From Rhizaria sp. SCN 62-66 (taxonomy: Eukaryota), in the NCBI GenBank assembly GCA_001724265.1, contig MEDY01000009.1:186001-250000 (forward strand): a stretch of DNA of 64,000 bases, in the 5' to 3' direction. Within the stretch, counting starts at the first letter, position 1. Every line of letters begins with the position of its first letter. The notes under the pieces were generated by a model. The model saw only the letters and a program-made list of their open reading frames with translations. It was not told the origin of the DNA and did not search any database. Positions 10,422-58,300 of the stretch are shown here, one piece after another. A program made the translations under genes and the position numbers.

Positions 10422-13327
10422 ATGCGTGTCGCAGCCCTCCATCCTCCCCCACCGTCCCCACTGACCAAGCGTGATGTCAGCTGTCGTGACAGAGACGAGC
10501 TCCAGCGTGACAATGCGGGCCCGTCGGCTCGCTCTCTGCGTCCTACCCTGACTTCGGCGCTCTACTCCGTCTCAGTGACAGTCCTGCTGCTGTCGCAGCT
10601 CGCCTCCTTCACGGCCGCCGCGTCCTCTCTCTCCGGCAGCAACAACGCGTACGCCTCCTCATCCGCGGACTCCAGCTCGATGTTGGCGCTCATGGGCACC
10701 GCGCCCCGCGACGCCGCGACCTCGGACGCCGGCGAGGAGGTTGCGTACACGTTCTTCGACTACGCCTCGCTGGCAGTCAAGTTCCTCTGGAACGTCTTTT
10801 ACGTCTGCGGCGCCTTCGTGCAATACTATCCTCAGTGGCGCGCCATCCGCCGCGGCGTCGGCACGGCCTTTTCGCCGCTTGTCTGCCTTATCCTGCTCAC
10901 GGCCAATATCACACGCATCTTCTACTACGTGGGCGAGCCGTTCGACCTGGTGCTGCTGTACCAGAGCATCGTCATGGTGCTCGTGCAACTGGTCGTGCTG
11001 CAGGCCGTTTGCGAGGACAAACTGCGCCGCATCACGGCCCGCGTTCACGGCGGCACTGCGCCCGCGCCCGGCGAGAGCGAGGACAACGAGAACGAGCTTG
11101 GAATCACGACCGGCAATGAGACCGAGGCCGAGCAGTCCGAGGCTGAGTATAATTCTAACAATAACAACAGCAGCAGCTCTATTGTTCATAGCACTGATGC
11201 CACGGCAACTCACGCCGCGGACGGCGCTGACCCCACTGCTGATGCTGCCACCGGCGCTGCGACTGGCGGCGTCTCCGGCACCCGCGGCCACACGACCCCG
11301 GGCGCCTCCGCCTCGGCCGCCGCCAAGGTCGCCGTCGCGATTGCGGCCGATGACCACGAGAGCTCCTCGGACGACGGCGGCGGCGGCATCGCGGCCGGCG
11401 GCGCCAGCTACCGCGCCCCGCGCCAGCCCCGGGTCATCGGTTCCGCGGCGGCCGCGGCGGCGGCGCTGGCGGTGTCTGCGCCGCGCCTGAAGCGCAACGC
11501 TAACAACGCCAGCGGTCACGGCGACTACAGCCACGACGACAACGGCCACACGGTCTCTGTCGCTCCGGCGGCGACTGCATCTGCTGCTGCGGCGGCGGGG
11601 GCGGGCGGGCGGAGCAAGGGCGGCTACGCTGAGTACGTGGACGAAGACAACAGCCACGACGACCGCAGCCAAGGCGGCGCCAAGCCGAGCGCGGTGCGTA
11701 GCGACGGCACTTTAAGCAACAACAGCAGCAATAGAAGCCTTGCATCTGCTGGTTCTAGCTCGAGAGTGACGAGCTCCCGCGGCTCGCAGCAGCCGCAGCC
11801 GCCGCAACACGTGATGTTGCACACGCGGTACCCGTCGTCGGCGCCGTCGTTCACGCAGTCGCTCATCGCGTGCTGCTTCCGCACGCGCGCGCACCTGCGC
11901 CGCGGCTTCAACCCCACCGCGGGCGACTCGGCCTCGGACGGGGTCATCTACGTCGACGCCCCCGGCGCGCACAACAACGATCACGCCCACACCAACAACA
12001 ACAACGCGAACAGCGGCATCGACGGCAACGATGACGACAATGACAACAACACGGAGCAGCGCACGCGCACGCGTATGCTGGCCGTGAGCGCCGTGGACGA
12101 CGGCGTGACGGACCCGCACAACCGCGGGCGCTACTACGTTCGGCCGCCGCTGACCATCTTCACCGGCGGCTGGCGCGGCATCACGGTCAACTTCTGGGCC
12201 TGGGAGCTCTACTCGAGCTACCTGCTGTTTTTGGTCTGCTTCACGTTGGTGCTCACTGTCTTCTCCGTCGCGCTGATGCGGTACGTGGCCTACGTGGTTG
12301 TGCTTGGCTACATTGCGCTCATGATCGAGGCCATGCTCGGCGTGCCGCAGGCCTACAAGAACTGCATCATCGGCACTCGCGGCCTGTCCGCCTTCCTCAT
12401 CTGGTCCTGGCTGCTGGGCGACATCGTAAAGACTGCGTTCTTCATCATGCTCGACGCGCCGATGCCATTTCTCGTCTGCGGCTCCTTCCAGGTCGCCGTC
12501 GACATCTTCATCATGCTACAAATCGCACGGGTATGTCTCTTTTTTATGCATCCAGCATTAACTATTTGTATAACTGAACAACCTTTTGACGCCTCTTGTT
12601 TTAATTATGTCTGACTGGGCATCGTTCATGTTTGTTTCATGACTCACGCCCTCTTCGATCTTTTTCTGTATCGATTCATTTTTAGGACCGTTTCCCCGAG
12701 GCCGCTCGCGAGCGTGCCGCGCTGGCTGCAGCGGCCGCAAACCTCAACCGCAACCAGCAGTCGGACGACGCAGAGGGGGGCGACCGCGAGCGGGGCCCGC
12801 TGGGCCCGGACGAGCAGCCCGAGGTGCAGCTGCCGCGCACGCCCACCATCCACAGCAACGGCAGCAGTGGCGGTGCCGCGGTGGTGGGTGGCGGGATTGC
12901 GCCCCGGTCGCTGTCGCGGCACAGCAGCAACAGCGGCGTCCGGCCTCTCCCCGCTACCACGCCCGCCCACGCGGCCGCGGCTGCGGCGGGTGCGACGACG
13001 CCGTCCAAGTCGGGGCGCAGCCTCAGCCTTAGAGCGCACGGCCACATCAGCGACGAGCCTGCAGCCAAGCCTGCCAAGACCAACAGCAGCGGCAGCGGCA
13101 GCGGCAGCGGTGTCGCCGTGGAGGCGATCGACATGGACTCCGGGGACGTCGAGGAGGGTTTCGCCGCTCTGGCAACCGTGGCCGCCGTCGCCAATACGAG
13201 TTAGGCGCGGGGCACGGCCGCCGACGCTGCTGTGCACGCTGCGCACTCCACGGAGGCGATTGTCGATGCCACAGCGTCTTTGCATGATGTGGGCATTGTG
13301 AGTGGTGAAAACATCGGTGAGGTTTGA
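10422..13327 (+). CDS. PQLC1: PQ-loop membrane protein, SLC66A2/PQLC1-like; exons 10422-12530 and 12686-13327 (13204 if TAG is read as stop)
   Basis: Two PQ repeats: YYPQW...FSPLVCLILLTANITRIF...LLYQS and EAMLGVPQAYKN...WLLGDIVKTAFF...PMPFLVCGSFQVAVD. Intron 12531-12685 (GTATGT...TTTAG). In-frame TAG 13202-13204 is followed by 40 more sense codons to TGA 13325-13327. Start codon inferred. Confidence 0.85.
12531..12685 (+). other. Spliceosomal intron (155 bp) in the PQ-loop gene
   Basis: GTATGT...TTTTTTAG, AT-rich, frame preserved. Confidence 0.85.
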
Positions 13328-13813
13328 GATGAATCTTTTGATAGATGATGCAATTAGTCATTAATGTGATGTTGATCTTTTGCTTGAGACACAGTTGGGC
13401 CATGCTAAAACTACTGCAATATGAATCACACATAGAATGCAAGCACGGCACGAGTAGAAATTATGTGATTTAGTGTGTAGTGAGACTGAGGGATCGGTCA
13501 AGATTCTTGTCGTATATTATGTACTTCCTAGCTAGATGTAGCAATAAAGTATATATTAGTGTGTTATTTATCACATGTACCGTCTTCACAGCCATCGATA
13601 GTGTGAAATTGTTACGAGTGGTCACTTACACTCGTTTCGTGGCTGTCAGTTGTTAACCTGGCACCTTTCAATCTCGAAGCATTGTGAACAGTAATTGCAC
13701 TATTGCATGGTATAGTTAATGTATCATATTAAATGCGCAATGTATGACCCTATACTATTGTGGCTAACCTATTGACGATAAAAACATTGCTTCATGTCTA
13801 TTTTTAGGCGCGG

Positions 13814-17545: not shown

Positions 17546-20500
17546 TTACTTGCTGGGGTCGTATTGGTGCTCAAGCTTGACCGGCTCGGCGCCCGACGGC
17601 CTGCGCAGTCGCTCGGCCTGCCCGGTCAGCGGCGCGCGATGCACGCCGTCGCGCATCAGCGCCACCACGGGGTGCGCGTGGCCCTCGCGCCCCGACTGGT
17701 CCGCGCACAGCCGGCCCTGCAGCTTGCGGCCGCGCTCGTCCCAGCCGTCGCTGTTGGTCATGATGTCAGCGCCGTAGTCGATCGGGGTCGTCACGCCCGC
17801 CGCAGGCAGCACGTGCGACAGCAGCTGCAGCATCGAGCCGCTGTGCCCGATCGGCCGCGCCTGGCGCATCACGGGCGACGCGCTGGGCAGCAGCCCGCGG
17901 CCCGCGGGCAGGCGCGGTCTGTCGGCCGCGCTCGCGTTCGCAGCGACCGCGCCGGGCACGGGAGGCGCGCCCGTGGTGACCGAGTCCGTCCGCGCCTGTC
18001 CCATCGTCAGCGGGTCGTTGGCGCGGTAGGTGCGGATCACGCGCGTGATGCCGGAGCGTCTCGACCGCGCCGGCGACTGCGCCGTCACACCGGAGGACTC
18101 GCCGTCGGCGGCGGCGGAGTCGGCGTCGCTAGTATACGAGATGACCTCGGGGCGCTGCGACATGCGGCCGATGTGGAAGGGCTCCTCCGCGATCGGCGGC
18201 GGCGGGATGATGTTCGAGCTCATCACGCGCAACGGCGCCGCAAGCGCCGCAGACAGCGCCGCCGCCACGACCGCGGGGTCGTCCGAGAGCCGGTGGCCGT
18301 ACGCGGGCACGATAGAGACGCTGGAGTCGTCCGACTGGTGGTATTGCCGCTGCTGCTGAGGGGACAGAGGCGGCGTGCCGTAGGCGTCGCCCGAAGCCGT
18401 GCTGTGCTGTGGCAGCGCGGGGACGCGCGCGGTGCGCATGGCCTCCGCGCTCTCGACGCCGAACGGGGGCGCGGCGGCGGAGCTATTGTGGTGTTGCGTC
18501 AAGTGCGACGGCACGTACTGCGCGCCGTGGCCGCTGGTGTGGCCGTGGCTGTCGGCGGACCGGCGCGCGGGCGCCATGTGCGCGTTCATCGGATGCAATC
18601 CCGAGGCCAGCGCAGCGTCCTCGGCCCAGTCGCCCGCGGCGGCGTCCGCGCGGCGCAGCGGGTGCCCGCGCGTGGTGCCAAACGTGTTGACGCGGCCGCG
18701 GTGCGCGTGCGCGGCGGCCGCGGCGGCTGTGGCGACGTAGGCCGAGCCGACGAGGTAGTCCTGCCCGTCGTAGGGGTTGGTGTGGACCGCGCCCTCGGTG
18801 TGCGCGCCGTACACCTGGCTCGTGCGGAACGGCTGAAACGCGTCGAACTCGTGGTCGTGCCCGGCCGGAGACTGGTCGCGAGGGATGCCGGACCGGCGCT
18901 GCTTCTGCTGCTGCTCATGCTGATGATCACGTTCATAGTGATCATTGTGAGCGTCATAGCGACCCTGATCGCCATATTCGTAGCCGTGATCGTTGTGGTG
19001 GTGATAGCGCTCAGCATCGGCGCTGTAGCCGTGGCCTCTCTCGTGGTGGTCGGCGTAGTCGTCGGGGGGGCCGCCGCTGTGCGCGTTGTTGTACGCGGAC
19101 TGATCGTACTGCTGATGATCATAGTGCGGATCCTCCTCGTACCCGTTGTTGTCGCCGCCGCTATGACCGTAGTCGCCGCCGTCGTGGCTGTGCGCATCGG
19201 CAGCAGCGGAGTCGCAGGCGCCGTTGTCGTCGGCGTCCTTTTGGTCAGCGTCACCGACAGCGGGAGCAGATGCAACGGTGGTGGCAAACGCAATGCTTTC
19301 AGACAGGCCATCCTGCTGTTGCTGCTGTTGCTGCTGTTGCGGCTGGCGAGTCTGACTGCCGCGCGCCGGCGTCAGCACGCGCGCGTGCTGCTGTGGCTGT
19401 CCCGGCTGCCTCTGGCCGGCGCCGGCCGCAGCAGACGCAGCGGCGGCCGCGGCAAGCGCCTGCTTGCGCGCGTCGCGCTCCGCCCGCGCCTCGCGCCGCC
19501 GCTGCTCGGCGACCACCATGGGGTGCTCCTTGACCGGCCCGGCGTGCGCATGCGCGTTGCGCATTGTCGTGGAGAAGCGTTGCTCCGCGGTCGTGGCCGC
19601 AGCGTCGCTCGGCCACTCGACGGGGCTCTGCGAATCGAAGTAAAGTCGCCTGTGCTGGTCGCACACCTGCTTCTGTTTGCGCTGGTTCGCAGTCGCCGTC
19701 AGGGCCGCTAAGTCGCCACCGGTCGCCTCCGCCTCTGCAGCCCGCTGCGCTGCCAGGGACAGCGCGCCCTCGTGGTCCATCGCGGCCTTGACCTGGACCG
19801 ACGAGGCGCGCAGTACGTCGACGCCTAGGCCCAGCACGCCCTCGCCCGCGGCCGCGGCCGCGGCGGCCACGGCCTCGGCGGCAGCGGCGCGCTCGCGCTT
19901 GGTCTTGGCCGCCGCGAAGGCCGTCGCGCCGTGGATCTTGGGCGAGTAGAACACCGGCTGGTCGCGCCCGGCGTAGTCGAGCCGCGGCGCGATGGCCGGC
20001 AGCGGCCGCCGCTGGTCGAAGCCCACCGCAGCGCGAACGCGCGGGTCCATGTTCGACGCGGGTGGTGCGTGGGGCGACGCCGCGGCGGCCGCGGCGGCGG
20101 CGCGGTGCGCGAAGAGCGTGGGCGGGCCCTTAGACAGTAGGTCCTCGACGCGACGGCGCTGCAGGGCCTCCGCGCGGTCGCCGCGGTAGGTCCGCGAGTC
20201 AATGATCAGCGGCGAGCCCAGCGGCGTCATCGCGCGCGCCGACACCGGCACCGAGCTCACGCCCGTGGTGCCAGTCGCGCCGGCGCGGGCGGACGGGTCG
20301 CGGCGGCGGCGCTGCGAGGGCATCGTCGCCGTCAGCGCGTTGTCTGTCGCGTACTGCGCTTGCCCGTCGCCGTTGTGACAGCTGAGATTGGCGTTGGTGG
20401 GCGTGCGCGGCGTGGCGTGGCGCGAGCGCTGGCGCGGGCGCGGCGTGAGCATGCCGGTGCCCGACTCGTGCAGCACCGTGTTGATGAGCGAGTAGCGGTT

Positions 20501-23500
20501 CCCCACGGCCTTGCGGTAGGCCGCCTTGCTCAGCGCGTCGCCCTGCATCGCGTCGCTGCGCGGGCCGAATGCCGCCACCGCAGTCGTCGCGGACGCGGGC
20601 GCCGCGCTGGCGTCGGCGTCGTCGAGCTGAGACGCGCCGGTGCAGTCCTCGGTGCTGAAATTGCTGTTGGCAGACGCAGCCGTGGTGTTGAGCCGCGCGC
20701 CGTCCACGGTGGCGGCGTAGCTGCCAGCGCGGTGCGCGGCGAGCGGCGTCTGCCCGGTCGCGGTGCGGTAGAAAGACAGACTTGCCGCGGCCGTGGCGGC
20801 GACGGCGGCGGGCACGTCGGGCATCGGGATGCTGTCGTTCAGGTGCGAGAACAGCCGGTGCGCGGCCCCCGCCCCCGCGGAGGCCGGCGTGGCCGGGTGC
20901 GAGGGCGCGTGGCGGGAGTGCGGCGTGCGCGGCGCGGCCGCCGAGGCGGGGTCCGCGCCGGGGCCGGAGGCGTGGTAGCGCATGTCCGCGTCCTTGTCCT
21001 CGTGCTCGGATGAGTTGCTGCCATACGACTGCTGCTGCTGATACTGCTGCTGCTGCTGTTGGTAGTAGTCGTAGTACTGCTGCTCCTGGTCGTCGTCGTT
21101 GCCGTCGCCATATTGCTGCTGCTGATACTGCTGCTGTTGTTGCTGTTGCTGCTGCTGATACTGCTGGTATTGCTGGTATTGTTCTTCGTCGTCATCATCG
21201 GGATACTGGCCTTGCTCGTTGTCGTAGTACGGCGTGCGCTGCAGCTGCTGTTGCTGCTGCTGGTGCCGCTGTTCATAGTCGCCCTCGCCGTCGCCGTCGC
21301 CGTCGGTGGTGTACTGCTGGCCTTGCTCGTCGACCTCACCGAACGGCCGCTGCGGCGCCTGCTGAGGGCCGCGGCGCCGGCCGGCGGCGCTGCCGTGGGG
21401 GCTGAAATATGGGTGCTTACGATGGTTGAAGTAGCCGTCCTCGTCGTCGAAGTCTTGGCGACTCTGATCTGGGTCCTGCTCCTGGCCGTCTGCGTGCTGT
21501 TGCTGCGCGTAATCGCCCTCGTAACCGCAGTCGTAGTCGTCGCCCTCGTCGCCGGCGTCGGCAAAGTCGTAGCCGTTGGCGGCATCGTTGGCGTCGTCGA
21601 CATTCACCACGTCATCGCCTTGACGACCGAGGCCGCCGTCGTCGATGTCATTGTACTCCTCGGTGACGCTCGTAGCAGCCGCTGCAGCCACCGCGGCCGC
21701 GAGCGCGGTAGGCGCGCCCTCCGCCCGCGCCCGCAGCGGCCCGCGCTGCTTGCAGTTGCTCTCCAGCGCAGTGCCATCGCCCGCCGTGGCAGCCGCGGCC
21801 TCAGCCCCAGCCCCAGCCTCAGCCTCGGCCTCAGCCCCGGTCCCGGGCACAGGCACGGCGTGGGAGCTGCTCGACGGGCTCTGGCTCTGGCTCGCGCTGG
21901 CGCTCACGCTGGCGCTCGCGCTAATGTCGGCCAGCGGGCTCGGCTGCGGGCTCACCGTCACCGCGTCAGCCTCCAGCTCGCTCACGGTCGGCGGCTTGAC
22001 TGTCCTCTCCTTGGCGGGCTTGACTTCGATGCCGAGCTCCTCGGGCAGGATGTCGAGCTCGGCGGCAAGCCGGATCAGGTACGACTCGCCGTCAAGGGAG
22101 TCGTCGCTCTCGTCCGCGTCTTTGGCTGCGCTCGCAGTAGAAGAGGGGCTCGCGCTCGTTTGTTGCTGTTGTTTCTGCTCGCCAGGCTCTTGTTGCTGTT
22201 GCTGCTGCTGCTGTTGCTGCTGCTGTTGCTGTTGCTGCTGCTGCTTCTCAAGCTCGGCGAGCTGCTCGGCCTTGCGTTCTCGTTCCTGCTCCTGCCGCTG
22301 CTGCTCGAGCTCCCGCTATTGCAGCTGCCGCTCGCGCTCCTGCTGGTGCTGCTGCGCCGCGCGCTTGGCAGCAACAAGGACGCTCACCTCGGCCTCGATG
22401 CGGCTGCGCTCCAGCGCCACCTCCTCGGCCGTCATGTTCAGGTCGGCGAACGCCCCACTCACGTCGCCGGTAAAGCTGGCGTTGCGGGCGTCGTTCGCGC
22501 CCGAGCCGGCGTTGAGGCTGGCGTTGAGGCTGGCGTTGATGCTGGCGGCGAGCGCGGCGGCGGGCACGGCGGCGGCGGTGCGCGGGGACTGCGCCGGCGA
22601 GGGCGCGAAGAACTCGGGTGACGGCGACGGCGACGGCTGCTTGAACTGCTCCTGTCGCATCTGCTGCTGTTGCTGTTGTTGCGGCGGCTGCTGACGATAA
22701 TCGCCACTGGTGGCGCCGCTGTGGCTCCCGGTGCGGGTCTGTGAGGCTGCGCGCGAGAGCGCGGGCGAGGCCGCGGGTGACGGGGTCGGAGGCGCGGAGG
22801 GCACCGTGAAGGGCAGCGAGGCGGCGGGAATGGCGTGGCTGCGGGCCTGGGAGGTGGCCTGAACAACGCTCGGCACAGGCTGCTGCCGCTGCTGCTGTTG
22901 CTGCTGCTGTTGCTGCTGCTGCAGTTGAGAGAGGGCCTTGGGGGAGCTGACGGCAGGACTTGCCCCCGTGTGGTGCTGATTGTTGTACCGAGGCTGAGGC
23001 TGAGGCTGAGGCTGCTGCTGTTGCTGCTGCTGTTGATGCAGCTGCTGCTGCTGCAGACGGGGATGCTGCATCAGGGCGGGCTGGGTGCGGACGCGGTCAT
23101 ACGCGGCGACTGTGGCCGGTGACGGCATCACGGCAGGAGGCGCGCGCTGGCCAGCCTGCTGCTGCTGTTGTTGCTGCTGGTGGTGACCAGGCTGATACTG
23201 CGGACGCTGACCATACTGGTAATCACCGTAGTCTTGGTCATGCCCGTTCTCATAGCCCTGCTGATACGGCGACTGCTGTTGTTGCTGCTGCTTCTGGTAA
23301 TGATGTTGTTGGCTGTGGTGGTGCTGCTGCGGCGTGTATGGCGTCGCGGGGCCCTGGGTCTGACTGTAGCCGTGGCCGGGAGCGTGGCGTTGAGGCTGCT
23401 GCTGCTGCTGCTGGAAGTATTGCTGCTGTTGAGGCTGGTGGCTGGCAGGGCTGTCGGAGTAGTAGCCTCCGTAGCCGTCATAGCCGTGGTCGTTGTCATT

Positions 23501-24043
23501 TGAGGCGGTTGCAGCTGCATAGTGATGTGGCTGATGCGGATACTGTGGTTGAGGGCCGTTATAACCATGGCTATTGTTGTTGTTGACTCTGTAGCTCTGT
23601 TCATGAGCAGGCGGCAACATCGGCCCATGCTGCTGCTGTAGGTAGTGCTCCTGTTGCTGACGCTGCTGTTGCTGCTGTTGGTAGAGTTGCTGTTGCTGCC
23701 ACTGCTGCTGGTGCTGGTCGCGCGGCGCGTGCACGGGCGCGTACCCGGCCGCGTAGTGCGGTGCGTGCTGCGCCAGTTGCCCGTGTACATGCTGCGAGCG
23801 CACAAACGCGTCGGGCGGCTGCGTGTACGCCGTCTGCACCGTCGCCGCGGGCAGCTGCGCGGCGACGCGGCGCTGCGCGGCCGGCGACGGCGCCGAGAGC
23901 AGCGCATCCAGGTGCGCGTCCAGTGGGTCGTGCTGGAACACCGCAGCCGAGCCCGGGGGCTGCGCGGGGAAGGGGCTGGGACCGGGGCCGGGTCGTGGGG
24001 CCGACTGTGGCGGCGTCTGGCGGGGGCGAGAAGCGCGGGACAT
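17546..24043 (-). CDS. Large Gln/Ala-rich low-complexity protein (about 2165 aa), function unknown, with one in-frame TAG
   Basis: ORF-track ORFs 22316-24241 and 17546-21985 share a frame and are separated only by TAG 22316-22318 inside a Q/E/R coiled coil. The 110 intervening codons have no other stop. ATG 24043 lies at the GC boundary. Ends TAA. Confidence 0.75.
22160..22245 (-). repeat. Poly-Gln (CAG/CAA) tract, one of many in 21030-23710
   Basis: (CTG/TTG)n on the + strand. Confidence 0.85.
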
Positions 24044-25975
24044 GGGCGCAGAACAAGCTCGGGCTGGGGCCTGAAAGTGGCTAGCTCGTGTTTCGTCAGT
24101 TAAAGCTTTGGTTTTAAGGAGAGTTTCGCGTGTGAGAGTTTTCTGTAGGCGTGTGCAGTGGAATGGGAGGTGAGCAAAAGGCCGGTGGGTTTCCCTTGGT
24201 GAGTGAGCTAGAAAACTAGATGTATCAAGATTCAGTGTCAACTTTACAACACTTCATCAAAATATTTAAAATATATCAATATCAGGTCATCTTAAATTTC
24301 AATTAAATGGTATGCCGACGAACATTAGAAGCAAATAAACCGATGAAACCGACTCGGGCGAAGCGACCACACAGCAACCGACACACCACCACTGTCGCGG
24401 AGAGGGACCGAAAAAACCTACTGAACTTCGAGTTCAATCCTAAATGTGTGACTTAATCATCTCAGCATCATGGAACAATTTGACCATTGTTTTAGTGCTG
24501 AATTGAAGTCATTTTTTCTAAATATAATGTTTGCCAATTGTGATATTCCGGTAATCACAGGCTGAACCGAACTAGCTTCACGAGTTTCCAAGATTTTCCC
24601 CAACACTTAAGCTTATTAAATATCGACCCCGCAACACTTTGCAATATAAAAAATATACACAATACAAATACAATTAATGAGAAAACGTAGCGGATATCAA
24701 GAATTCTCTGTTATTTCGCACACTATTCAAAACTAAGCACAGTTCTAGTGAGTGTTGGGATGGGACTAGGAGGCAAAAATGCACATTGGACGCAGTGCAG
24801 CAACTTCGCGACTGCTGTGGCATAGAACTCACAGGAACTCCGCTGCGGAGTCAATAATATAACGCACATAAATTACAGATGCAGGTAGTGTGATAATAAA
24901 CGCGACATAACATGCTGTTCGAGTCTGAGCTCTGTATCGTGCTTCAGAGGATTGTCCGCAACTGTCTAGAACTGGAGCAATGTAACCAACAACACGTTCA
25001 TAAACGCATCAAGTAGCTTGCCATCATTTTTTTGCCAGTGCGCACGCTCTTGTTCATTACATACATCGCCTGACCGTTCAGCTCACCAACGTGGCATGAT
25101 GCGCCACAACTTGTGGACGCCGAACACAAGCCATGGTTGGAAACAACCCTCGCTGGATTGGGCGTGAGATAAGTTTTAAGTTTAACACAACATTAACAAA
25201 ATGACTTTGAACAATGTCAGAAACTTGAAGTTACCAGGGTCAGTATTATTGCTGATACTCATGTTTACTATTGCTGATGCTCATGTTTACTGGGTGTATT
25301 TCATCACGCAGCCTTGCGTTACTCAATCGTTAGATTCGCATTACCTTTTAACACAGGTAGAAATGTACCTGACATCATTACAACAATTTTACTTGCAGAA
25401 AGGCACCGGGTGGGCGGATCTATATTTGGAGGTTTTGGTATCATTCGGATGTTGTGACAGTGGTGATGTGGTGCGTACACAATCGCATCGGTGATTTGAC
25501 CATGTATCCTGATACGGTGAAGACAACCCACGAAGAAGCGCAGTGCCAATAAGATAACAACTGTCCCGACAAATATCCGCGACACAAGTGAATACGCGTG
25601 TGTTGGTCGACGCGTGATTGCAGGCCTAGTTAGGCCTGCAACCACTACAAAAATGGAGACGCATACGATGAACTTGCGAGTATTACGGCCCCGCAAAAAT
25701 ATAATATACTAAACTAACTAAATTATACGACACCGCGGATATCTACTTCATGAGGTTCTATGGATTGGCATATTCACACTTTCTTCTGAAATCTGTCGCC
25801 TGAATACAAGTGCCAACTAGTTCTGAGCGTGTTTAAAAGCTACTTACGTCGAGACGATGAATCCGTTGTTACTGCTATATGACTATTGCTAAGTTGTACG
25901 ATCTTATATCCTATTTGGGTTTCTTTTTATATTTTCGCATCCGTTTCTTACAGCTCGCTAGCTCGTGCAACAGCA

Positions 25976-45103: not shown

Positions 45104-45958
45104 GCGCGCTAATTGATCACTAGTGCAGCTCAATCTCGCTCTCGCATGAATGTGCGCGGAGCATATATGCCGCGCTTGTGCTGAGTTGTGTGTCCGCACA
45201 ATTTGCAGCTTATGCGGCACTGTTGCAGACCTGCGCAGTCGGGAGTCCCGTCAGACCCGTTGCCAGAGACAACGCCCGTCTACTCAGCTTCGTAACGCCG
45301 CGCGGTGCTCCAACATCTCCGCTCCTATAACTGAGAACTGGCCCGTATACACGCGGTTCTCCAAAACCCTCACCTCAATGTCTCAATAGAGCGCGCGCGC
45401 GCGATTGCCGCGCATGCGTCGCTGCGGCGTTGCCCACTCGTTCCTAGCGAGCAGTCGGGTGAAGGTATTTATTGCAGTATTTAGCCAGAACAAAGTGACA
45501 CACGTGAAACTTCACTATATGTACACGATAATACGTCTGTATATCTGTGCTATGTTTCATCATGTTGCTATTATGTTTTCGTTATAACTTCATATTCGTT
45601 TACACAGTAAAACAAACGCTTCCAAAAACCTAAAAATGACCTTAAATGGGAGATAACTCCCGCTACATACATTATTATATTCACAACACTAACCATTGTT
45701 TTTTTAAATGTGCTTATGTATTATTTGTAGTGATTTTCTATTTTATCGGTTCTTGTGCGTACAAACGCGTTTTATGTCCTAAAAAGTCGCAAGTGCAACA
45801 GTTCGTTAACGTAGCTACGTTTGCATTCCCTAGATATGAACCTGTTTTGCTCTTTCATTCGGCTCGAAGCTAATCCCCAAGTGCGTGATTTGTGTTGCAT
45901 TTGTGAGTCCGTCCTCGCACCTCAGTTCTATGGTTGTGGTTAGTTGCAGGCGTTGCGC

Positions 45959-46634: not shown

Positions 46635-46948
46635 ATTATATGATTCTCCGATGCGGGGGCAAGGCACAAGACTTCAAACAAAAATCCGCAACATGACACT
46701 CTCGCCAAGCCAGTCCAAGTCGTAGCCGTTCTGCGACCGTCGATGAGGGAGCAATGCAAATCATATCTCAGCGAAGGCCTGCCCCACAGATTCACAGTTA
46801 TTGTATTTGTTTTGTATGTCTTTTATGCGCATTTATTTTAAAGATCTAGTCCACAAGTCGATATTTTGCTTCTTTACGCGCGCAAATCTCACCTTCGTTG
46901 AGCATCTCTGCGCTTGTATCTGCCTCCTTAGCCTGCCACATGCGCCCA

Positions 46949-47051
46949 TTACAGCCTCAACAGCGATGAGTGCAGCCGCTTGATGGCGGCCACCATGTGT
47001 GCCTGCTTATTATTGCAGAGATGCGTTGTCTTTGCCGTATCTTGTGCAGCC

Positions 47052-47122
<71 letters not shown>

Positions 47123-49192
47123 TTGTTGTTGCTGGCTGCCGCTCTGGGACGTGCCACCTGTCGTTGTCACCACCACAGACGTTGTCGCTTCCGTGAGGCC
47201 GAGCTCCTCCAGGACCGTGAGCAGCAGCCTCACGTCGCTCTTGGCCTGCGCCAGCGCTGCCCGGCCCACGGTCACCGGCTCCACGGCCGGCACCGTCACC
47301 GTGTACCGCGAGTCGCCAGGCAGCGCAGCCGCTGACAGCGAAGCCACCGGCAGTGCAGTCGCTTGCTGACTGGAGACTGTGGCTGAGGGCTGCGTTCGCG
47401 CGGGCGCTGTCTTAGCCGCAGTTGCTGTGAATCCCGGCTGCGGCGTCTCTGCAGCGCTCTGTGTCTGCGCCCACGGCTTTGCGGCAGTGACGGTCGCGTC
47501 AGGCGCGGCGCTTGGCGCGGCGCTCGCAGACCCGCTAGACTTGGGCTGGATGAGGGGAAGGAACGCCTCGGCGATCTTCTCTGCCGCCGCAGTCTTAGCC
47601 GCGTCGCTGGTGCTTGGGACACTCATACGCGAGTCTAGTGACCGCAACTTGCCAAGGACGGTCTTTTTGCCGGGGATGCGGCAGTTGGGGTAGGGCTTCG
47701 GCGGCGGAAGCGACTTCTTCGCCTTACCGCTGCAGTTGAGCGCATCGAGCCTAGTGGCTGCAGCGACTGCGGCTGCCGTTGGGGTTGCAGTAGCGGGAGA
47801 AGCGGACGCGGTCGCTGACTTCGTGGTGCCCTCAGACGTCGCACCTGCAGACTCCTTTACAGGCGCGGTCGAGGTGGACGCGGAGGCGCTCACGGTTACA
47901 CTGCGCACGATGGGAACACAAGGGCTCGCACTCTGGATCTGAATGGTCTGTGTCCCGTTGACGCCATCCCACTTGTAGCAGACAGTGTTCTCGACAGTCT
48001 TGGAACGGTACAGCTGGAGGTTGCAGCTGCTGAAGTCCACGTTCGCAAACAGCGACGCCGCTGCAGCAACGGACTTCACTCCCGTTCCCGTGGTGGACGT
48101 CAGCGGTGTCGCACCTGCAGCGACACCGGACGACCCATTTGCGCTGTGCACAGTGCTTGCTGAAGGAGCAAAGGCTGAAACTAACGGCGTGCTCACTGTA
48201 GGCTTGCTTACTGTTACTGCAGGCTTGTCGACTGTAACTGCGCTTGCTGGCACTGCAGACTTCCCTGCAACCATCGCAGTCATGCCCACAGTTATATCGA
48301 GAGGGATCACTACCTGAGCAGCTGGAGGAGGAGTCGCGGCAGGCGTTGCCTTTGTCACAACAGGCGTGCTGCTGATGCTGCCGCTTGTGCCGCTACTGTA
48401 ATTGCTCGCAACATCGGCCTGACTGGCAGATCCGTTGCGTGTTGAAGTCGCGGCCACACCGGCCGCGCTGACGGGGGCTGCCGCTGCGAGCCGGTGCTCT
48501 GCAGGCACGCAGCTAGCTAGCTTGAACGTTGTGCTATACTTGCGTTTTGCACTGCCTGTTTGCGTTGAGGAGGCTATTAGGCCCGCGACTGAGTCGGTGT
48601 TGCTTCCAGGTGTTCTCGCAACATGGTCACCTGTGATCTAGGGACAGTCCTCGTTGGCCAATGCTGTTGCCGCATGACTAGCGAGCGGGGATGCCTCTTT
48701 CAGGATGTTGCAAGCTGTGCCGATATCTACTATAGGCAGCGTACGCTGGACGGCGTTCACCGCGGCCACTGCTGGCGTCGAGGCCCTCGTCGCGAACGCA
48801 ACCTCGACGGGAGCGACTTCCTTGGTCACAACGCTCTCTAAGCTGGCAAGCCGAGTAGACCCGGTCGTGGGGAGAATCAAGAGAGGTAGGCTTAGCGGAA
48901 CAACAGTGGTTGATGCGATACAAGAGTCAGTCTTGAAGATGTTGAAGTTGCTAACCTTAGTCCGATCGATGATTGCGAAGTCGAGGTCGGACCAGTCACT
49001 GCCGGACTCGGGCAGATCGCACTCGTATTTGGCGACCGCATTGCTACACTTGCGGGCAGCCGCCGGCGAAGTAAGATCGCTGTTGTTGGAGGGAGTGAGC
49101 AGCTCGAAGTCGCAGAGCGTATCACTGGAGGCTGTGCCGGTCGGCGAAGGAGGGGACGTCCCCACTTGAAGCGTCGTCGAAGGCAACGACAT
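46949..49192 (-). CDS. Ser/Thr/Ala-rich hypothetical protein (about 747 aa) with one in-frame TAG
   Basis: ORFs 48638-49225 and 46949-48508 are in one frame, separated only by TAG 48638-48640 plus 43 sense codons. ATG 49192 lies at the edge of AT-rich sequence. Ends TAA. Confidence 0.65.
47052..47133 (-). repeat. Coding microsatellite (CAA/CAG)n(AAC)n: poly-Gln and poly-Asn
   Basis: (TTG)n(CTG)n on the + strand. Confidence 0.9.
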
Positions 49193-49534
49193 ACACGCTA
49201 TAAATAACGTGTTTAAGTAAACCAAATAAAGAGTAATATTAAGTAAATAACATTTGTTTCATATTCATTCTTATAAATGTGATCTCACGTTCAACAAAAG
49301 AAATATCATTCCGTTTCGACACACCACTGTGATGCATGCTGAAGATCGGTGCCCACAGTCACCTCCTTCAGCAACAAATTGCACCGCAGAGAATACAATT
49401 TACAAGGTGTGTATTTTAAGCAATATATAACGGTTTATAGAATAGTAATTATACATGTGATCTAAGCCACACATACCAACACAGCATCACGTATAAGTGA
49501 GCTATTCAAGGTAAGAGCGGTTGCTTCGCTCAGC

Positions 49535-50743: not shown

Positions 50744-51366
50744 CGGCTGTGAAGGGAAACAGTGAGGACGCGTCATAAGCAGTGTGACGTCAGAGGCGAT
50801 GGATACCAAGCGTGGGAGTTGAAATGTGGCGGAATATGATCGTCATTGTGAGATATAAGATGTGTGTTTGGGGCGTGGGTATGTGCCCTATATAAATTGC
50901 TCTGAAACATGCATATAACTAGTCATATCAGATGATAAAATGAAGCTTGTTCCCAAGGTCCCTGTCACGTCACCTGCAGCAAGCCAGATTAGTGGAGAAA
51001 CTGGTATTCTCATGTGTATACGACTGCACAGCGTCTTCCTTCAGAAGTAATGTAAATTGAATTATACCTAAAGGTGCACCATTTAATGTGTCGCCTATTT
51101 AACATGGGCATGGACGGAGTGTTACATGCATATTACCTGAATTCGTGTTCCCTGCCAAACCTTCAATTCGAGAGGGACAAAATTGAGTTGTGGCATGTAC
51201 ATCTTGTGTGATATTTCGAGTTAGCTTTGAAGCACAGGTTGACAGAACTCACAGCTAAAGTATGCGTTTCATTGGTATTTTTATCTATGGTCTCGGATTT
51301 ATAGAGATAACTCCTCTCTGAGGTCGGCGCAGCCTTACTGGAGCGCGCGATACCAAATCTTGACAA

Positions 51367-52092
51367 ATGCTCGGAGACCCTGACCGAGACCGCGACGTGT
51401 CGGACGAAGCGATCGATGGCCCTAGCGACATTCTGGGCAAAATCAAGGAGAAGGCGACGCGTCTTCCGCCCTTCGTAACTTATGGCGGGCTTATGGGTCT
51501 CATTGCTATCTTCTGTGTCATGACATACGTCTTCTACACCACCTTCAACAGCCTCGTCTTGTTCCTTCTTCTCATCTCGCTTCTCGTCTTCGCTGCCATC
51601 ATCTATATCAACGGCGACTGGCGCACCGCCGCGCTGGGTGCTTTCTCGTTCTATTTCATATTTGGCCTGTTCATTGCGTACCTCAACATCCGCGCCTGGC
51701 ACCGCCTCGACTCGGCACTGACGCCCGCGGCGGGCGGCGCCATCGACGAACGATGGGGCCCCACAGAGCTGGCCGCGTGGTTTGTCCTGCAGGGCATCCC
51801 GCACCTCGCCGCCAGGTTTGGTCTCTCCACGACCACGGCGCCGGGCGCACGCTTCGGTCCGCAGCCCTACTCGGGGGCCAAGCTGCTCATGCTGACCGAG
51901 CCCGAGCTGCTGCGAATGCCGCTGCTCGTGTCCGACGGCCGTGAGCGCGCTGTGATCATCGAGGGCATCCGCAAGGGCATCAAGCTGCATGAGCGCCGGC
52001 ACAAGAACGGGATCAAGGTCGACGAGTGGCTCAACGCCGCGCTGCAGGGGCCGCTGGGGCTGGGGTACGACAGGATGGCGCGGAACGGGTGA
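51367..52092 (+). CDS. Membrane protein (about 3 TM helices) with SAM-like domain
   Basis: Hydrophobic stretches at about aa 35-108, then WGPTELAAWF...YSGAKLLMLTEPELLRM...GRERAVIIEGIRK (SAM-like). Ends TGA, which overlaps a possible GTGAGA donor at 52089. Confidence 0.65.
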   Translation: MLGDPDRDRDVSDEAIDGPSDILGKIKEKATRLPPFVTYGGLMGLIAIFCVMTYVFYTTFNSLVLFLLLISLLVFAAIIYINGDWRTAALGAFSFYFIFGLFIAYLNIRAWHRLDSALTPAAGGAIDERWGPTELAAWFVLQGIPHLAARFGLSTTTAPGARFGPQPYSGAKLLMLTEPELLRMPLLVSDGRERAVIIEGIRKGIKLHERRHKNGIKVDEWLNAALQGPLGLGYDRMARNG

Positions 52093-52634
52093 GAGTGACT
52101 TGATCGAAGTCTGTCACCGCTTCTTAAGATGGTAAGTATGAGAAAAACATGGCGTCTTTGTTTGAAGTGTCGTAAGTGATCGTTTTTTTCCAGATTATTC
52201 GTGGGTCCTGCTCTACTGAACGACGTTTCAAGTCATACAAATGAGACATATTCTCATCTAAAGTAAGATCGTACTTCCAATGTGGAACCATATAAGTGAA
52301 CTTGGTTGCTGAAACTCTCTCATCATCCCTTATGAACCTTTTTCCGCTGGAAGAGATATTGCATTGCTGCTTTGTCACATCGCTGAAATGACCGTGACCT
52401 GGTGAGGCACGTTCGCCTTCAGGCATTCTCTGGATTTTGAAACCCCATATCTTAAGCCTTCATTAGGCAGCGTATTTGGCGTGTGTACAAGTCAAAACCA
52501 GATATGTACATGAATTTTTGATTTAATCCGGTGTTTTATTTCAAATAGTTTGACAAAACACTGATGCTACGGTTTTATAATACGCTGTAACTGCTCCATA
52601 TCTTAATCTCACTCAGCGTCCTCCGTAGGACGTG

Positions 52635-55139
52635 ATGAACGAGCTTCAGCTGCAGTACAAACTCTGCTCGCCTTACGTTGTCCGCTGTCTCGGTGTCATG
52701 GACACAAATGCTCTCACGGGCAAAAGCAGTGTTTCGACAGTGCTTAATGACAGTGGTGTTGGACAAAGTGACGAAAGCAACTTTTCGCTTGTGATGGACT
52801 ACATGGATGGTGGGTCACTGAACAAGCTTCTCACTCACCCTGACTACCGCACAGTGTCAAGCGAGGCGCGTGTCTGGTTAGTGCAACAGGTAGCAAACGC
52901 TGTGCATGCGCTAAGCAAGGAGAACATTGTTCACGGCGACATCAAGTCCTTCAACTTTCTTTGGGATGTTGTGGACAACAATACGCACCCAGTCGTCAAG
53001 ATCACAGACTTTGGTAACGCGAAGCTGCATGCGACGATGCAGAACATGTCTCTCTCCTCCTTCCCGCGTACGGCTCACTAACAAAAGAACACGCCCTAGT
53101 GACTGAGCATCTCCCACCAATATGTCAACTTGAGGAAGCTTAACACGTATCCCCTTGAATCATACTTCTATTCAATATTTTAATTTGCACTCGTAGATGT
53201 GCCAGACTCTGTCTCGGGCACGCTGGCATGGATGGCACCGGAGTTGCTGAGTGGACAGTCCCGTCATAACGCAAAATCGGACGTATATGCACTTGGCATG
53301 ACCTTGTACGAAATCGCCTTTGGCGTAAGGCCGTTTGAGCACTTCAGTTGCAGTGAGATCTCAGCCATGATCATCAACGGTCTGCGCCCCACCATCGATC
53401 TGAACGACTACAACGAAGAGGCGCAACCGAAGTTTTACCCTGGTACGGCACCGCCATCATCGCTGATAACACTCATCAGCGAGTGCTGGGACGCAGACCG
53501 AGACAAACGTCCCAATATTGAGGACGTCGTAAGCCGGCTACAGGCCATCCGTTGCGATGAGCGCGCTGCACGTGGCATGATGCTTAAGGTGCTTCGTCGC
53601 GATCTGAATCAGCAGTCACAACACGAACATTCACAGTCATCAACAGTATCCTCGTCTATTTCCTTTACCAGCGTTATCACAACGGACACACCCATCAATA
53701 GGCCGGCAGCGCCGCTGCAGCTTTACCAGCACAAGGACGTGAAGACTGGACCGGTACACTCGGTACAGACTGTTCCCGAACAATCGGCAGCACCCGCGCC
53801 GCCCCAGCAAAAGGTGTGGAGCCCTTTACCTGCTGGCTGTAAGCTGGACCGACGCCACATGTCGCAGCCGGTCTCTACGCATCGTGCGGATAAAGCAGAT
53901 AACCAAAAAGTGCCTGAGCGATACAGCATGGTCATGTCCCAGCCTATTGCGACGGTCAAGCCAATGCTAGCAGAGCGCGATGCGTTGGACCTGCCGCAGC
54001 GGACACCGCCCCCGTCGGACGAGGCGGATGAGCTGTTCCAAGTCGGACTCGCAATGCTGGAGACGTTACCACATGGTTCGAGCCCTCAAAGCGCGTTCGA
54101 GACCATCAGCGATGCTGCCAAGCTCGGTCATCCTGGCGCTATCTGCAAAATGGCATAGTACTACCTGCAGCCCGAATTCGGCCGCTACAGCGTTTATAAC
54201 GCTAGGAAGTGGATGAAGAGCTTGACTCTGCTTAGTGGAGAGGGCTGTTACCAGTATGGAGTATGGCTTATAGCGCGTGATATCGACTTTGATGAGGCTG
54301 AACTGTACTTACGTTGCGCAAGTTTTGCAGGGTATCGGAAAGCGGATGACACGCTTGCGGCACTGTTTACACTTCGTGTTACGCGTAGTATAATGGCGAA
54401 GCTTGGAAGTGAGCAGAACAAAGATCTAGCTAAGCGGTTGCGGCGCGGACTGATGCGCCGATGTCCGGTCGCATACTACATGTTAGCCCGTGCAGAGTTC
54501 GATGGTCTTATTGACATTAAACAAAATCGGAGCTCAGGTTTTGAGATTCTACTGGGCGCTGGAGAACCATTGGATGGCGATGAGTTTTACGGGCCTGCGG
54601 CAGCGTTCTACGCCCACTTCAAGAACTCAATGCCACATTGGAAGGCTGCTGCAGAAGCAGGAGATAAGCATTCACAATTCATGCTCGGCAACCTTCTCAT
54701 CGAAAATGGCGATTACGCAACCGGACTGCTGTGGCTCCGTGAAGCGGCCACGCGTGAGTACGATGCTGCGTTGGTTCGGCTGGCAGAGATTAGCTGCGAA
54801 GGCCTCTATGGGCAACCCCAAAGCAAGGGCGTCTCCATTCTCTACGTAAAACGCGCGTACGCAACTGGTGGTCCTGATGGAGAAGCGGAATTTGCAATGT
54901 ACTCCGTGCTCGGTACAGGTGTGAAGAAAGATCAACAGTACGGCGCGCGCAAGCTACATGAGATTGCCTCAGACTCAAAAAATAGCAGGGCAATGTACAA
55001 CTTGGCTGTGTGCCATTTAAATGGATGGGGTGTCAGGCGCGATGTTAGTGCCGCCAAGTTTTGGTTGACTCGGATTCGAGACTATCCGAAGGCGTCACGT
55101 CTTTTATGCGACCTATGTTGCTCTAAAACTACCACATGA
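52635..55139 (+). CDS. TKL-type protein kinase fused to Sel1-like repeats; intron 53068-53196; in-frame TAG 54156-54158; 5' end unresolved
   Basis: LVMDYMDGGSL, HGDIKSFN, KITDFG, GTLAWMAPE, KSDVYALGM, CW...KRP. Phase-1 intron GTACGG...CGTAG restores the frame. Sel1-like repeats AAKLGHPGA, AAEAGDKHSQFMLG, AMYNLAVCHLNGWGVRRD. Ends TGA. Confidence 0.8.
53068..53196 (+). other. Spliceosomal intron (129 bp) in the kinase gene
   Basis: GTACGG...CGTAG, phase 1, joins the DFG exon to the APE exon. Confidence 0.88.
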
Positions 55140-55344
55140 GGCGAGAATTAGTTCGGGGAAGACTTGATGGTTATGCAAGATTGTTGAGTTGAGGTATGGA
55201 CAAGGAACTGTATTGAGTGTACATACGAAATATACGAAGAAACACTCCTACACTTAAGATAAATCACATGTATATAAGCAAGGTATACGTATAGCAGAGA
55301 AAATAAACTCAATTTTAAACGACCAGATCATGGCATAATTCGGA

Positions 55345-58300
55345 TCACTGCTGTTGCACGCCGCGATGCACCGCCTGCGGCCGCATCAACGGCCTCTACA
55401 TGGCCCCGGCGCGGTTCTGGTCAGCGCCCTCCCACACCACGGGCGGGCCCCCCGGCGCCGTGTCGCGCGGAAATGGCGTGAAGAGGTAGCCCAGCAGCTC
55501 AGTCAGCACCGCGGGGTCCGCCAGCGGGTTGCCGTCGAAGGCGGCGCGTAGCGGGGAGTGTGCGCCGAGCCGCGGATGAAGCCCGTGTGCGAGCGCGGCC
55601 ATGGCCAGCTCGGCGTCGCGCAGCTCGTTGGTCTTGAGCGTCACGTCGATCACGGTCAGTGGGACCGTCGTCGCGTCCTTGGTGACGTACTGCCTCGGTT
55701 GCTGCGACTGGTGCGGATGCTGCTGCTCTAGGCTCGGAAACGACAGAGGCGCGGGAACGCGGACGGAGGTAATCCACGCGTTGCGGAGCAGTGGTGGGAG
55801 ATCGACCGACGCGCGCGCGGACTGCGGGTCGAACGGCGTCAAGGGCACCGACGCATGCACAAAATCAAACTCGAGGAGGCTCGTGTTGCGCATGACCGCA
55901 CGCGTGAGGGCCAGAATGCCGGCCTCGCGCAGGTGCGAGCGCGTGAGGTCAATGCGCCGGAGCCGCGTGCGCTCGATGGCGGGGGCGAGGATGTGGACGA
56001 CGGAGCGCTCGGAGAGGTGCGTGCGCGAGACAGAGAGACTCGTCAAGAAATCGCTTAAAACGAGCGAGGCGAGCGCCTGCATACCGGCGGAGTCGAGGCG
56101 AGAGGCATCTAAAGAGAGCGTGCGGAGGTTGGTGGCGCAAACAAGAGACTCTGCGACGAAGTTGAACGAAGTGCCGGTCAAGCCGCACTTGGAAAGGTTC
56201 AGCCGTGCCAGCGGGATCGTGGGACGCCGGGAATATGCGAGGTGGAGCGCCGCACCAAGAGCGGGACCGAGCTTGGGATTCATGGATAAGTCGAGCGACA
56301 GCAGGGACGAGGTATGCAAAAGCAAACTTGTCAGCGCAAGACTCGCCTGAAAATCGACGAATCACAAAAATTAAGCGAGGATGTGGAAAAGATAAGAAAA
56401 TTGAGTTAGGACAACGTGTCAAAATACAGTTCAGGATTATAGTAGAACATTTAAAATAGCGTATAATAAAACCTTGTCAAGTTTCATACCTCTTCGGTGA
56501 TCCCGTTATCCGCTAAATGCAGAACCTTGATCGAGTCACCCATCTCCACTGCCCTCATTATAACGGCAGCGCTGAGCCCTTCAAGTTCATTCTCGTTAAG
56601 GTTAAGCTCCGTGAGTCCGCGGTTCCGGGCAAGCCCGGGCGCGAGCCCTCGTGCCGCGCGCGCAGTGATGTTCATCTGACCCATGTCGAGCCTGCGCAGC
56701 GCCGCGTTGACCGTGAGCGCGTCACCTAGCACGCGACCCGCGTCAGCGGTCATGGCGTTGCGGCACATGACGAGCTCCTGCAGCGCGTTGTTGCAGCCTA
56801 AAGAGCGCATCAGAGCGAGCATGCCGCGGGAGAGGATCTTGCACGAGATGATGTTGAGGTGCTGCAGCGATGATGAGGCCGACGGGTCAGAAAGGAAACC
56901 GGCCAGCGCGACGGCGCCAGCGTCGCCCAGGGGGTTCGAGCTCAGATTCAGCGACCGAAGCGCGGCGAGCGCCGCGGGCGCGGAGGGCGTGATGGCAACA
57001 AGCGGGGACAGTAGCCACGCAGGCGGAGTCGAGAGCTCGTACGGGTATTGATACTTGGACTTGTTCTGTGTCTTACCATTCGCACCGCTGCCAAGTCCGT
57101 TCTCATGAGCATCAATCGCGTTGCCATAAGCAACTGCATGGCCGCCCGCATTATGACCATGGCCCAGGTCAGCAGTGTCGTCGCCCTCACTGGCGTCGAG
57201 AGAAAAGTAGTCGTCTTGTTTCTTGACCCGGGCGTTCGCCGCCGCTGCAGCCGCAGCCAGTCCCCCTGCGCCACCCGCGCCCGCGGCCGTCGCCGCACCA
57301 GCAGCAGCAGCGGCGGCCTCAGCAGCCTCGCGGCGCTCGCGGCGCTGGTTGGCGAGCACCTGCGCCCACGTCTCGCGGCACCGCAGCCTGAGGCGCGCGG
57401 TCGCGGACACTGCGTCCGCGGCGGCCGAGGTCGACAGCGGTAGCCGCTCGGCCGAGAGGAACATGGGGGGGTGAGGCGCGAGCGCGGAGCAAAGCGCATC
57501 GTTCGCGCTCGTGTTGATCACCAGAGGGCTCGCGGCGCCGTGCGCGCCGTGCGCAGGCGCCGAGCACAGCGAACCGGTGCAGTCGGTGGGCGCGTGCGCG
57601 TGCGACGCCGTGCCTGCGGCGGCGGCGGTCGCGGCGGCGGAGGCCGCGGGGTGCGCCGGTCTGTAGCGGTGCGTGCGCGTGAGACTGGCCGGCGCGGGCG
57701 TGAGCGGAAACAGAAATGACTGGGAGAGGCCGTGCAGATAGTCGGCAAGCAAGGGCTCGGCAGCGGCAGCAATGGCAGAGTCATCGCGGCTTCCGTCAAC
57801 GCTGAACACGGAGTTGGGAGCTTTGCTGCCATCAAAGTCGAAGCCCTCATCGTCAATGTCAGAGTTATTATCGCCGTCGTCGTCGTCGCCGCAGTCGCTG
57901 TTACAGCAGCTGCAGAAGCCTTCCTGGTCACAGTCGTCATCGCCGCAGTCAGTCTCGTCGGCGTCCGCGCTCTCGGCCTCCCCGTGGTCGCCGCGGCCGC
58001 AGAGCGCGGAGGACGTCGCTTCGTCGGCGCCGAGCTCGTCCCAGTGCCACGCCAGCTCCTCGTCGTCCTCCTCGCGCTCGCACTCCCACCTCGGCAGCCA
58101 CAGCGGCGCGCCCCCGCTGTCATGCTTGCCCGTTACAACAGCCGTGCTCGCGGGAACCGTCGAGATCGCCCGCATGCGCGCGGTAAGGGACAGCGGCTGC
58201 GCGTCGAACCAACCCGCGTTGGCGCCCATGCGCAGCGGCGGCAGCACGAGCCCGTCCGCGGTGTCCGCGTCGGCGACGTCGTTGTGCGTGTCACCCACAG

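Follow-up and report, generated by a model that had tools for sequence, protein, structure and literature searches.

Nuclear genetic codes in which UAG has been reassigned without UAA are described for only a handful of eukaryotes, namely the sainouroid rhizarian exLh, Iotanema, and some phyllopharyngean ciliates, in the sections of the two reports that treat them (PMC5304391; PMC11687900). Reassigned on its own, UAG encodes Gln in Iotanema spirale (Fornicata) and in the ciliates Hartmannula sinica and Trochilia petrani, and Leu in exLh and in three Tara Oceans phyllopharyngean ciliate genomes (PMC5304391; PMC11687900). According to the same sections, UAG accounts for 18.5-31.8% of the Gln codons and occurs in 78-84% of the genes of the Gln-decoding organisms, and 78-91% of genes contain it in the UAG-reassigned ciliates (PMC11687900), while 384 in-frame UAG codons were counted in 71 genes of exLh, 95% of those at hyperconserved columns being Leu, with terminators comprising 56 UAA and 15 UGA (PMC5304391). 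A Leu tRNA with the anticodon CUA, tRNA(CUA), was found in two of the three Tara Oceans ciliates. As described there, the known UAG-only codes all use UAG abundantly and so display an end state, not the capture of the stop codon. Here we report on a 64-kb stretch of DNA (contig MEDY01000009.1, positions 186,001 to 250,000; hereafter the window, numbered from its first letter), in which the original prediction had recognized five genes, each carrying one in-frame TAG followed by coding-like sequence, and had read UAG as a sense codon, likely for Gln, with UAA and UGA remaining as stops.

The five TAG codons, together with the reading frames around the three that lie inside genes, are as follows.

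13202..13204 (+), TAG close to the 3' end of exon 2 in g4, the PQ-loop gene; terminator or sense codon
22316..22318 (-), in-frame TAG in a Q/E/R-rich stretch of the 2235-codon low-complexity gene g7; evidence, frame continuity
17546..24253 (-), reading frame of g7, in which the TAG links two open frames and TAA is the stop; no Pfam family
48638..48640 (-), in-frame TAG in the 747-codon Ser/Thr/Ala-rich gene g12; evidence, frame continuity
46949..49192 (-), g12 reading frame from the first ATG to TAA; no Pfam family
54156..54158 (+), in-frame TAG in the Sel1-like repeat domain of g14; evidence, homologues, model, and contigs
53199..55139 (+), final exon of g14, which encodes the kinase C-lobe, a linker, and the Sel1-like repeat domain and has TGA as its stop
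55396..55398 (-), TAG at the 3' end of g15, the large LRR gene, in its last exon; terminator or sense codon

All five TAGs were found in the frame and on the strand that had been predicted, followed by the bases G, C, A, T, and A, respectively, and at three sites (22318-, 48640-, 54156+) the codon fuses two stop-to-stop open reading frames (ORFs) exactly in frame. These three internal TAGs lie in sequence that has to be translated through for the encoded protein to be made, and those at 48640 and 54156 are kept in independent assemblies; ordinary introns and gene boundaries are excluded for all three, and assembly errors, by these assemblies, for the latter two. We give somewhat better than an even chance to the view that UAG codons internal to the mRNAs are translated into an amino acid, either by reassignment or by efficient suppression, whereas UAA (mainly) and UGA terminate. 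With the same narrow lean in its favour, the claim of a sense UAG keeps its three internal TAGs in coding sequence and is weakened by the rarity of TAG and by the two gene-end sites, which may be stops. UAG as a sense codon is thus plausible, and by a little the side on which we come down, and it is unproven, 64 kb being too little to decide against three recent nonsense mutations.

The TAG at 54156 is the strongest and decisive site. The last exon of g14, entered at an acceptor ending in CTCGTAG (53196-53198), matches Pkinase (E 4e-15) and Sel1 (E 3.2e-10) in Pfam when compared as a whole, and the TAG joins the ORFs 53184-54158 and 54159-55139 of the plus strand in frame. An exhaustive HMMER search with 451 residues around the site, in which the TAG is residue 125, returned eight proteins at E<=1e-30, and all five homologues that cover the TAG column run through it, with Q in P0129, R in P0122 and P0135, and M in P0238 and P0264. 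The Gln stands in the closest homologue, P0129, which is identical with the window at 14 of 28 residues in the 30 columns before the TAG and at 20 of 39 in the 45 columns after it. Moreover, P0135 and P0274 each comprise kinase C-lobe, linker, and Sel1-like domain within a single continuous ORF, of 601 and 619 residues, respectively. An AlphaFold2 model of the g14 domain, computed with an eight-row alignment (predicted local distance difference test, pLDDT, 92.0; predicted template modelling score, pTM, 0.87), forms one continuous helical-repeat domain over residues 9-376, in which the TAG is residue 55 within the helix 47-56, a block with a pLDDT of 93, and Foldseek places it closest to Sel1 repeat proteins and SEL1L (E 1e-9 to 1e-8). 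As modelled, the C-terminal part of g14 is a Sel1-like repeat (SLR) solenoid of helical hairpins. The domain after 54156 keeps the conserved positions of the family, and a stop at the TAG would, on this model, retain only two and a half of the domain's 21 helices. The first ATG follows 19 codons downstream of the TAG. In the database, g14 is split into two proteins, P0123 stopping at the TAG and P0121 beginning at the first Met afterwards, an example of how standard-code gene callers break up genes of this organism.

The placement of 54156 inside the Sel1-like domain follows from the exhaustive HMMER search and the alignment-based model only. Pfam on the 140 residues around the site gave no family at E<=10, so that no repeat is recognized right at the TAG; with a repeat hidden Markov model derived from five downstream repeats, 96 to 272 of 500 shuffles scored at least as high as the real sequence; and single-sequence AlphaFold around the site gave a pLDDT of 48.6. 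A word-based protein search with g14 residues 230-480 found no match among 5387 candidates, and one with residues 40-215 of the 451-residue query found only the window's own two pieces. An exact 36-mer over 54156 had no match in viral_contigs or genome_contigs, and a tight family alignment (A2) produced 285 pattern matches in genome_contigs and 55 in viral_contigs, none of which was confirmed.

Kinases with a Sel1-like C-terminal domain (P0122-P0129, P0271-P0274) are located on 32-397 kb contigs of metagenome eukaryotes, and most close family members of g14 have ORFs that are broken inside the domain, despite the length of these contigs. One gene of the family, represented by the variants P0129 and P0273 (contigs of 32 and 56 kb), ends inside the conserved domain, with '...YEYALWLMSC' and '...YEYALWLMSR', respectively, at a point where other members go on with E, Q, G, or D. 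Because a YGT/YGY codon with an immediate stop excludes run-on into a GTAYG donor, this end is read as a second in-frame stop in the family; seen in the protein, it is a hint and a lead, not evidence for TAG. P0272 and P0126 begin at internal Met residues of the Sel1-like domain. The longest contig is given as 74,829 for both P0126 and P0274, which may be neighbours.

The case for 22318 and 48640 rests on the reading frame, because neither protein has a Pfam family. In g7, the TAG joins the ORFs 17546-22315 and 22316-24253 of the minus strand in frame, the Q/E/R-rich, coiled-coil-like text runs unbroken over the codon, and the GC content at third codon positions (GC3) hardly changes there, amounting to 0.80 over the 20 codons upstream and 0.85 over the 20 downstream; the 444 codons from the TAG to the next ATG score +113 in this frame versus -163 and -594 in the others. 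In g12, the ORFs 46949-48637 and 48638-49258 of the minus strand are joined in frame, and the stretch of 118 codons that precedes the next ATG scores -0.6 versus -98.8 and -74.9. Separate downstream genes were considered and rejected, as no ATG occurs for 444 and 118 codons after the TAGs at 22318 and 48640 (the first one comes at codons 445 and 119, respectively), and as the gaps are coding in that frame only at all three sites.

Spliceosomal introns, which the original prediction had left out of account, are present in the window and matter for in-frame TAGs because many of them end in this triplet. Six clear ones were recognized, one each in the PQ-loop, PEX2, uracil phosphoribosyltransferase (UPRT), and kinase genes and two in the LRR gene; they are 66-230 nt long and AT-rich, their donors follow GTAYG (GTACGT three times, GTATGT, GTATGA, and GTACGG), and their acceptors are YAG, several of them after a T-rich stretch. 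In one rival reading, the TAGs would escape the ribosome altogether, either by being spliced out with unusual short in-frame introns or by RNA editing. The TAG at 22318 could formally act as an acceptor: paired with a GTGAGT that lies 144 nt upstream, it would close an intron of 147 nt, divisible by three, and paired with a GTGAGC, one of 72 nt. This in-frame intron at 22318 was rejected: the candidate stretches are GC-rich, with a GC3 of 0.8-1.0, and lack a GTAYG donor, and a score of +26.1 for the 60 codons before the TAG sets this sequence apart from every real intron of the window. No GTAYG donor was found within 600 nt upstream of 13202, 22318, or 54156. Such a donor near 48640 leads to the sole candidate intron at that site, which is 107 nt long and out of frame, and at 54156 the residues on either side of the TAG align with the homologues, implying that nothing is removed. 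Introns thus exist, yet they do not explain the TAGs, and we consider removal or editing of the codon before translation very improbable. In the RNA-labelled runs X5 and X9, contigs match parts of g12 and g14; as none of those listed bridges a TAG and the listing has no joint across one, they are uninformative on splicing and expression.

The window derives from a metagenome assembly, and the TAGs might for this reason be assembly or sequencing errors. Contigs of four runs were compared with the window over 45500-57000, a range that includes the sites 48640, 54156, and 55398. Run X2, which belongs to another study, agrees with the window letter for letter wherever it is listed, and its record 8 spans 55398. 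Run X4, which belongs to a third, shows 14 differences over the 2762 nt (about 0.5%) of its record 14 (52627-55388), none of them at 54156-54158; X2 and X4 give the same letters as the window at 54156 and 55398. Contigs of X4 and X5 cover position 48632, where they carry a synonymous T>G exchange, two codons downstream of the TAG; for 48638-48640 itself, the contigs of other studies have no listed difference. Three of the five predicted TAGs (48640, 54156, 55398) are accordingly recovered in independent DNA. The TAGs at these sites are real and common to strains about 0.5% apart, and an origin of the TAGs in errors has, in our estimation, next to no probability. Two contigs of run X4 lose their match at 52624-52627, with 130 unlike letters after and 224 before this point; it lies just ahead of the acceptor of the kinase exon, and an insertion or replacement in that strain's intron may be the cause.

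The TAGs at 13202 and 55398 lie at gene ends. Behind 13202, 40 codons lead to a TGA at 13325-13327, and they look coding, with a log-likelihood ratio of +10.9 in frame versus -17.7 and -34.0 in the other frames, a score above those of all 13 control 3' flanks (-41.1 to +6.8). Behind 55398, 16 codons lead to a TGA at 55345-55347; their score of -4.5 falls inside the control range of -11.3 to +2.1, as in an untranslated region (UTR). Coding-like text past the TAG, which had been claimed for five genes, is thus observed at 22318, 48640, and 54156 and, by score, at 13202, but not at 55398.

TAG might also still be a stop codon that is locally read through, by programmed readthrough or by position-dependent termination, in which it would be sense internally and a stop at the 3' end. 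The internal TAGs within coding sequence would agree with this explanation, as would the gene-end TAGs, both of which could terminate, 55398 with a UTR-like tail; position-dependent termination has been described for some ciliates (PMC4967479). Nevertheless, a separate signal would be required in each of three unrelated genes, and codons of this kind are abundant in the described dual-meaning codes, whereas TAG is very rare here. The differing next bases leave no common downstream context for readthrough, as the original prediction had noted, and CARYYA, the tobacco-mosaic-type readthrough motif, is absent at the TAG sites. We therefore regard local readthrough as improbable.

Codon and stop tallies were taken from 17,624 codons in 23 coding segments of the 15 genes that were recognized in the 64 kb. 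No comparable internal TAA or TGA occurs in this set, in line with what had been predicted. The 13 unambiguous terminators comprise 10 TAA, 3 TGA, and no TAG, and termination is strongly UAA-biased although the coding GC3 is about 0.8. Internal TAGs were found in three of the 15 genes, and the conserved UPRT, PEX2, GNAT, and AlaX-like genes have none. The predicted sparseness of TAG is also borne out, with 3 (at most 5) TAGs beside TTA 31, CTA 57, TAT 70, GAA 83, CAA 142, and CAG 563 in the same set. A search by flank scores for stops with coding-like text on both sides gave mainly antisense frames of genuine genes and no discrimination.

These tallies bring up the main rival, in which the organism uses the standard code, the internal TAGs arose recently as nonsense mutations in dispensable, fast-evolving genes, making these young pseudogenes or truncating alleles that are tolerated, and 13202 and 55398 are ordinary stops. 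A number of observations weigh in its favour and against a translated UAG. TAG is at least six times rarer than the rarest synonymous codons counted, and its use is far below that of the published UAG reassignments as they are described in the sections cited (PMC5304391; PMC11687900). About 65% of random single-base nonsense mutations in these coding sequences would yield TAG, so that three of three would all be TAG with P = 0.27, and the restriction to TAG is weak evidence; a CAG codon, encoding the Gln of the closest homologue at 54156, becomes TAG by a single transition. Likewise, the lack of TAG among 13 terminators has P = 0.25 if TAG makes up 10% of stops, the TAGs at 13202 and 55398, which do not fuse ORFs, could be ordinary terminators, and TAG would then account for an unremarkable 2 of 15 terminators, the UTR-like tail after 55398 agreeing with such a role. 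The three affected genes are of a kind that can tolerate loss, two being low-complexity orphans without a Pfam family and one a member of a multi-copy family. Furthermore, no tRNA(CUA) was detected in the 64-kb window by ARAGORN, and Rfam gave no match, nor does the window include the gene for eRF1; the only alignable TAG column, that of 54156, is variable (Q, R, R, M, M). Finally, strain differences after the TAGs are 3 synonymous to 6 non-synonymous, compared with 9:5 elsewhere in coding sequence, although the contrast (Fisher P = 0.21) involves too few differences for a test of selection.

In contrast, nonsense mutations do not readily account for three of 15 neighbouring genes being hit exactly once each, with no frameshift, TAA, or TGA, and with no second lesion in the 1589, 562, and 326 codons downstream, nor for TAGs that are shared by strains 0.5% apart. 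The intact domain after 54156 and the coding-like 40 codons after 13202 are also difficult to reconcile with this rival, as is the second family member on other contigs, which has an in-frame stop of its own in two variants. We read translation of UAG as the likelier explanation because three of 15 genes carry one lesion each with no frameshift, TAA, or TGA, because strains share the TAGs and the domain that follows has stayed intact, and because the extension at 13202 looks coding. The reading as nonsense mutations stays alive because TAG is extremely rare and because of the nature of the affected genes, and we hold it to be unlikely, though a good deal less so than local readthrough. The window resembles ordinary premature stops, such as nonsense alleles or unitary pseudogenes, in that single TAGs stand in otherwise open frames of non-essential-looking genes and in that TAG is the commonest nonsense product under its codon usage; it differs from them by the number of neighbouring genes affected, by the lack of further lesions, and by the occurrence of the same TAGs in several strains.

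If UAG is translated, the residue might be inserted by a tRNA with the anticodon CUA, or by a near-cognate tRNA-Gln(CUG) combined with a weakened recognition of UAG by eRF1. The low use of TAG would then suggest that the change is recent or that decoding is inefficient, so that TAG may survive only in weakly biased, fast-evolving genes. Gln is weakly favoured as the inserted residue because the closest homologue has Q, the context at 22318 is Q-rich, and CAG is the commonest one-step neighbour. The original proposal of Gln hence gains the Q of P0129 and is limited by having a single, variable column behind it. Leu, judged by the alignment, is not supported by this one testable column, where it appears in none of the five homologues.

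Like Iotanema, Hartmannula, and Trochilia, the window combines in-frame TAG with TAA and TGA stops, and Gln is plausible; unlike them, it has 3-5 TAGs versus 563 CAG and 142 CAA, and it belongs to another lineage, a metagenome clade in the UPRT tree. Like exLh and the Tara Oceans ciliates, it would have UAG uncoupled from UAA, and it terminates mainly with UAA, in the proportion of 10 TAA to 3 TGA compared with 56 UAA to 15 UGA in exLh, whereas it differs from exLh in the lack of Leu homologues at its single testable column. Unlike the two Leu-UAG ciliates, it yielded no tRNA(CUA) within its 64 kb. UAG-only reassignment is already known, and the window, if the reassignment is real, would be a new, unrelated member, unusual in its sparse use of TAG. 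Our literature searches on UAG and nuclear-code reassignment returned, in the excerpts they covered, no report for a wastewater lineage of such kind. We consider it a real possibility, if one that falls a little short of an even chance, that an uncultured, deep-branching eukaryote lineage, frequent in wastewater reactors, is at an early stage of UAG-only reassignment (probably to Gln), in which UAA has taken the place of UAG at gene ends and UAG is translated but so poorly tolerated that it remains in only a few weakly biased, fast-evolving genes. If this is true, a UAA-dominated lineage with traces of in-frame UAG would represent a rare intermediate, a snapshot of codon capture, and the order of events (loss of UAG as a stop, gain of tRNA(CUA), change in eRF1) would become testable.

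Sequence nearly identical to the window was found in 12 public runs from seven studies, all of them bioreactor, wastewater, activated-sludge, or fuel-cell metagenomes, and the window is regarded as a contig of an uncultured eukaryote because its near-identical matches come from such metagenomes. Throughout the 64 kb, exons are GC-rich, and introns as well as spacers are AT-rich. Three further features deserve mention.

9567-9764 (-) and 8802-9401 (-), UPRT gene in two exons, E 2.4e-66
just after TTTTTAG at 13801-13807, PEX2, Pex2_Pex12 with E 1.9e-23
29874-43352 (-), uninterrupted ORF of 4492 codons without an in-frame TAG

The UPRT intron runs from GTACGT to CGTTTAG, with the upstream exon encoding an N-terminal extension ahead of the conserved domain, and the C-terminus, ...DRYFGT followed by TAA, matches the end of the uracil phosphoribosyltransferase chains 1upf and 1bd3, which we take to be those of Toxoplasma gondii. 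In the UPRT tree, whose 26 named rows comprise Amoebozoa, Fungi, Trypanosoma, and two bacteria, the window falls inside a clade of 16 metagenome rows (support 100/100), apart from all named rows, and its closest relative is 85-86% identical.

The identity of PEX2 holds. The intron of the PQ-loop gene g4 (12531-12685, GTATGT...TTTTTAG, phase 0) leads into exon 2. A splice from a GTGAGT at 13307 to the TTTTTAG acceptor at 13801-13807 would span 501 nt, preserve the frame, and formally fuse the tail of the PQ-loop gene to PEX2; this pairing is probably a coincidence, because GTGAGT mismatches the GTAYG donors of the six clear introns. The remaining genes include an AlaX-like protein, a GNAT acetyltransferase, and two ankyrin proteins in addition to the PQ-loop protein (g4), the LRR giant (g15), and the membrane kinase with a C-terminal Sel1-like domain (g14). 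A metagenome scan with the AlaX-like protein kept 80 loci, all at 35% identity or less, and returned no DNA of this organism or of close relatives.

For the long ORF, the lack of an in-frame TAG was noted correctly in the original prediction, whereas its length was measured as 4492 rather than 4486 codons, and the name 'APC1' was not upheld, as no Pfam family (E<=10) and no PDB sequence (E<=0.01) matched. Inside this ORF, ARAGORN called a 101-nt tRNA-Pro(CGG) at 31744-31844 (-), where Rfam has no tRNA at the gathering score, and the call is probably false. In the gene at 49535-50842 (-), the region 49850-50600 reaches a summed depth of up to 233 in run X2, with dozens of short-sided joints and many loose ends of GCGGCC-type repeats, a pattern that looks like cross-matching of low-complexity, GC-rich DNA of other organisms and not like rearrangement.

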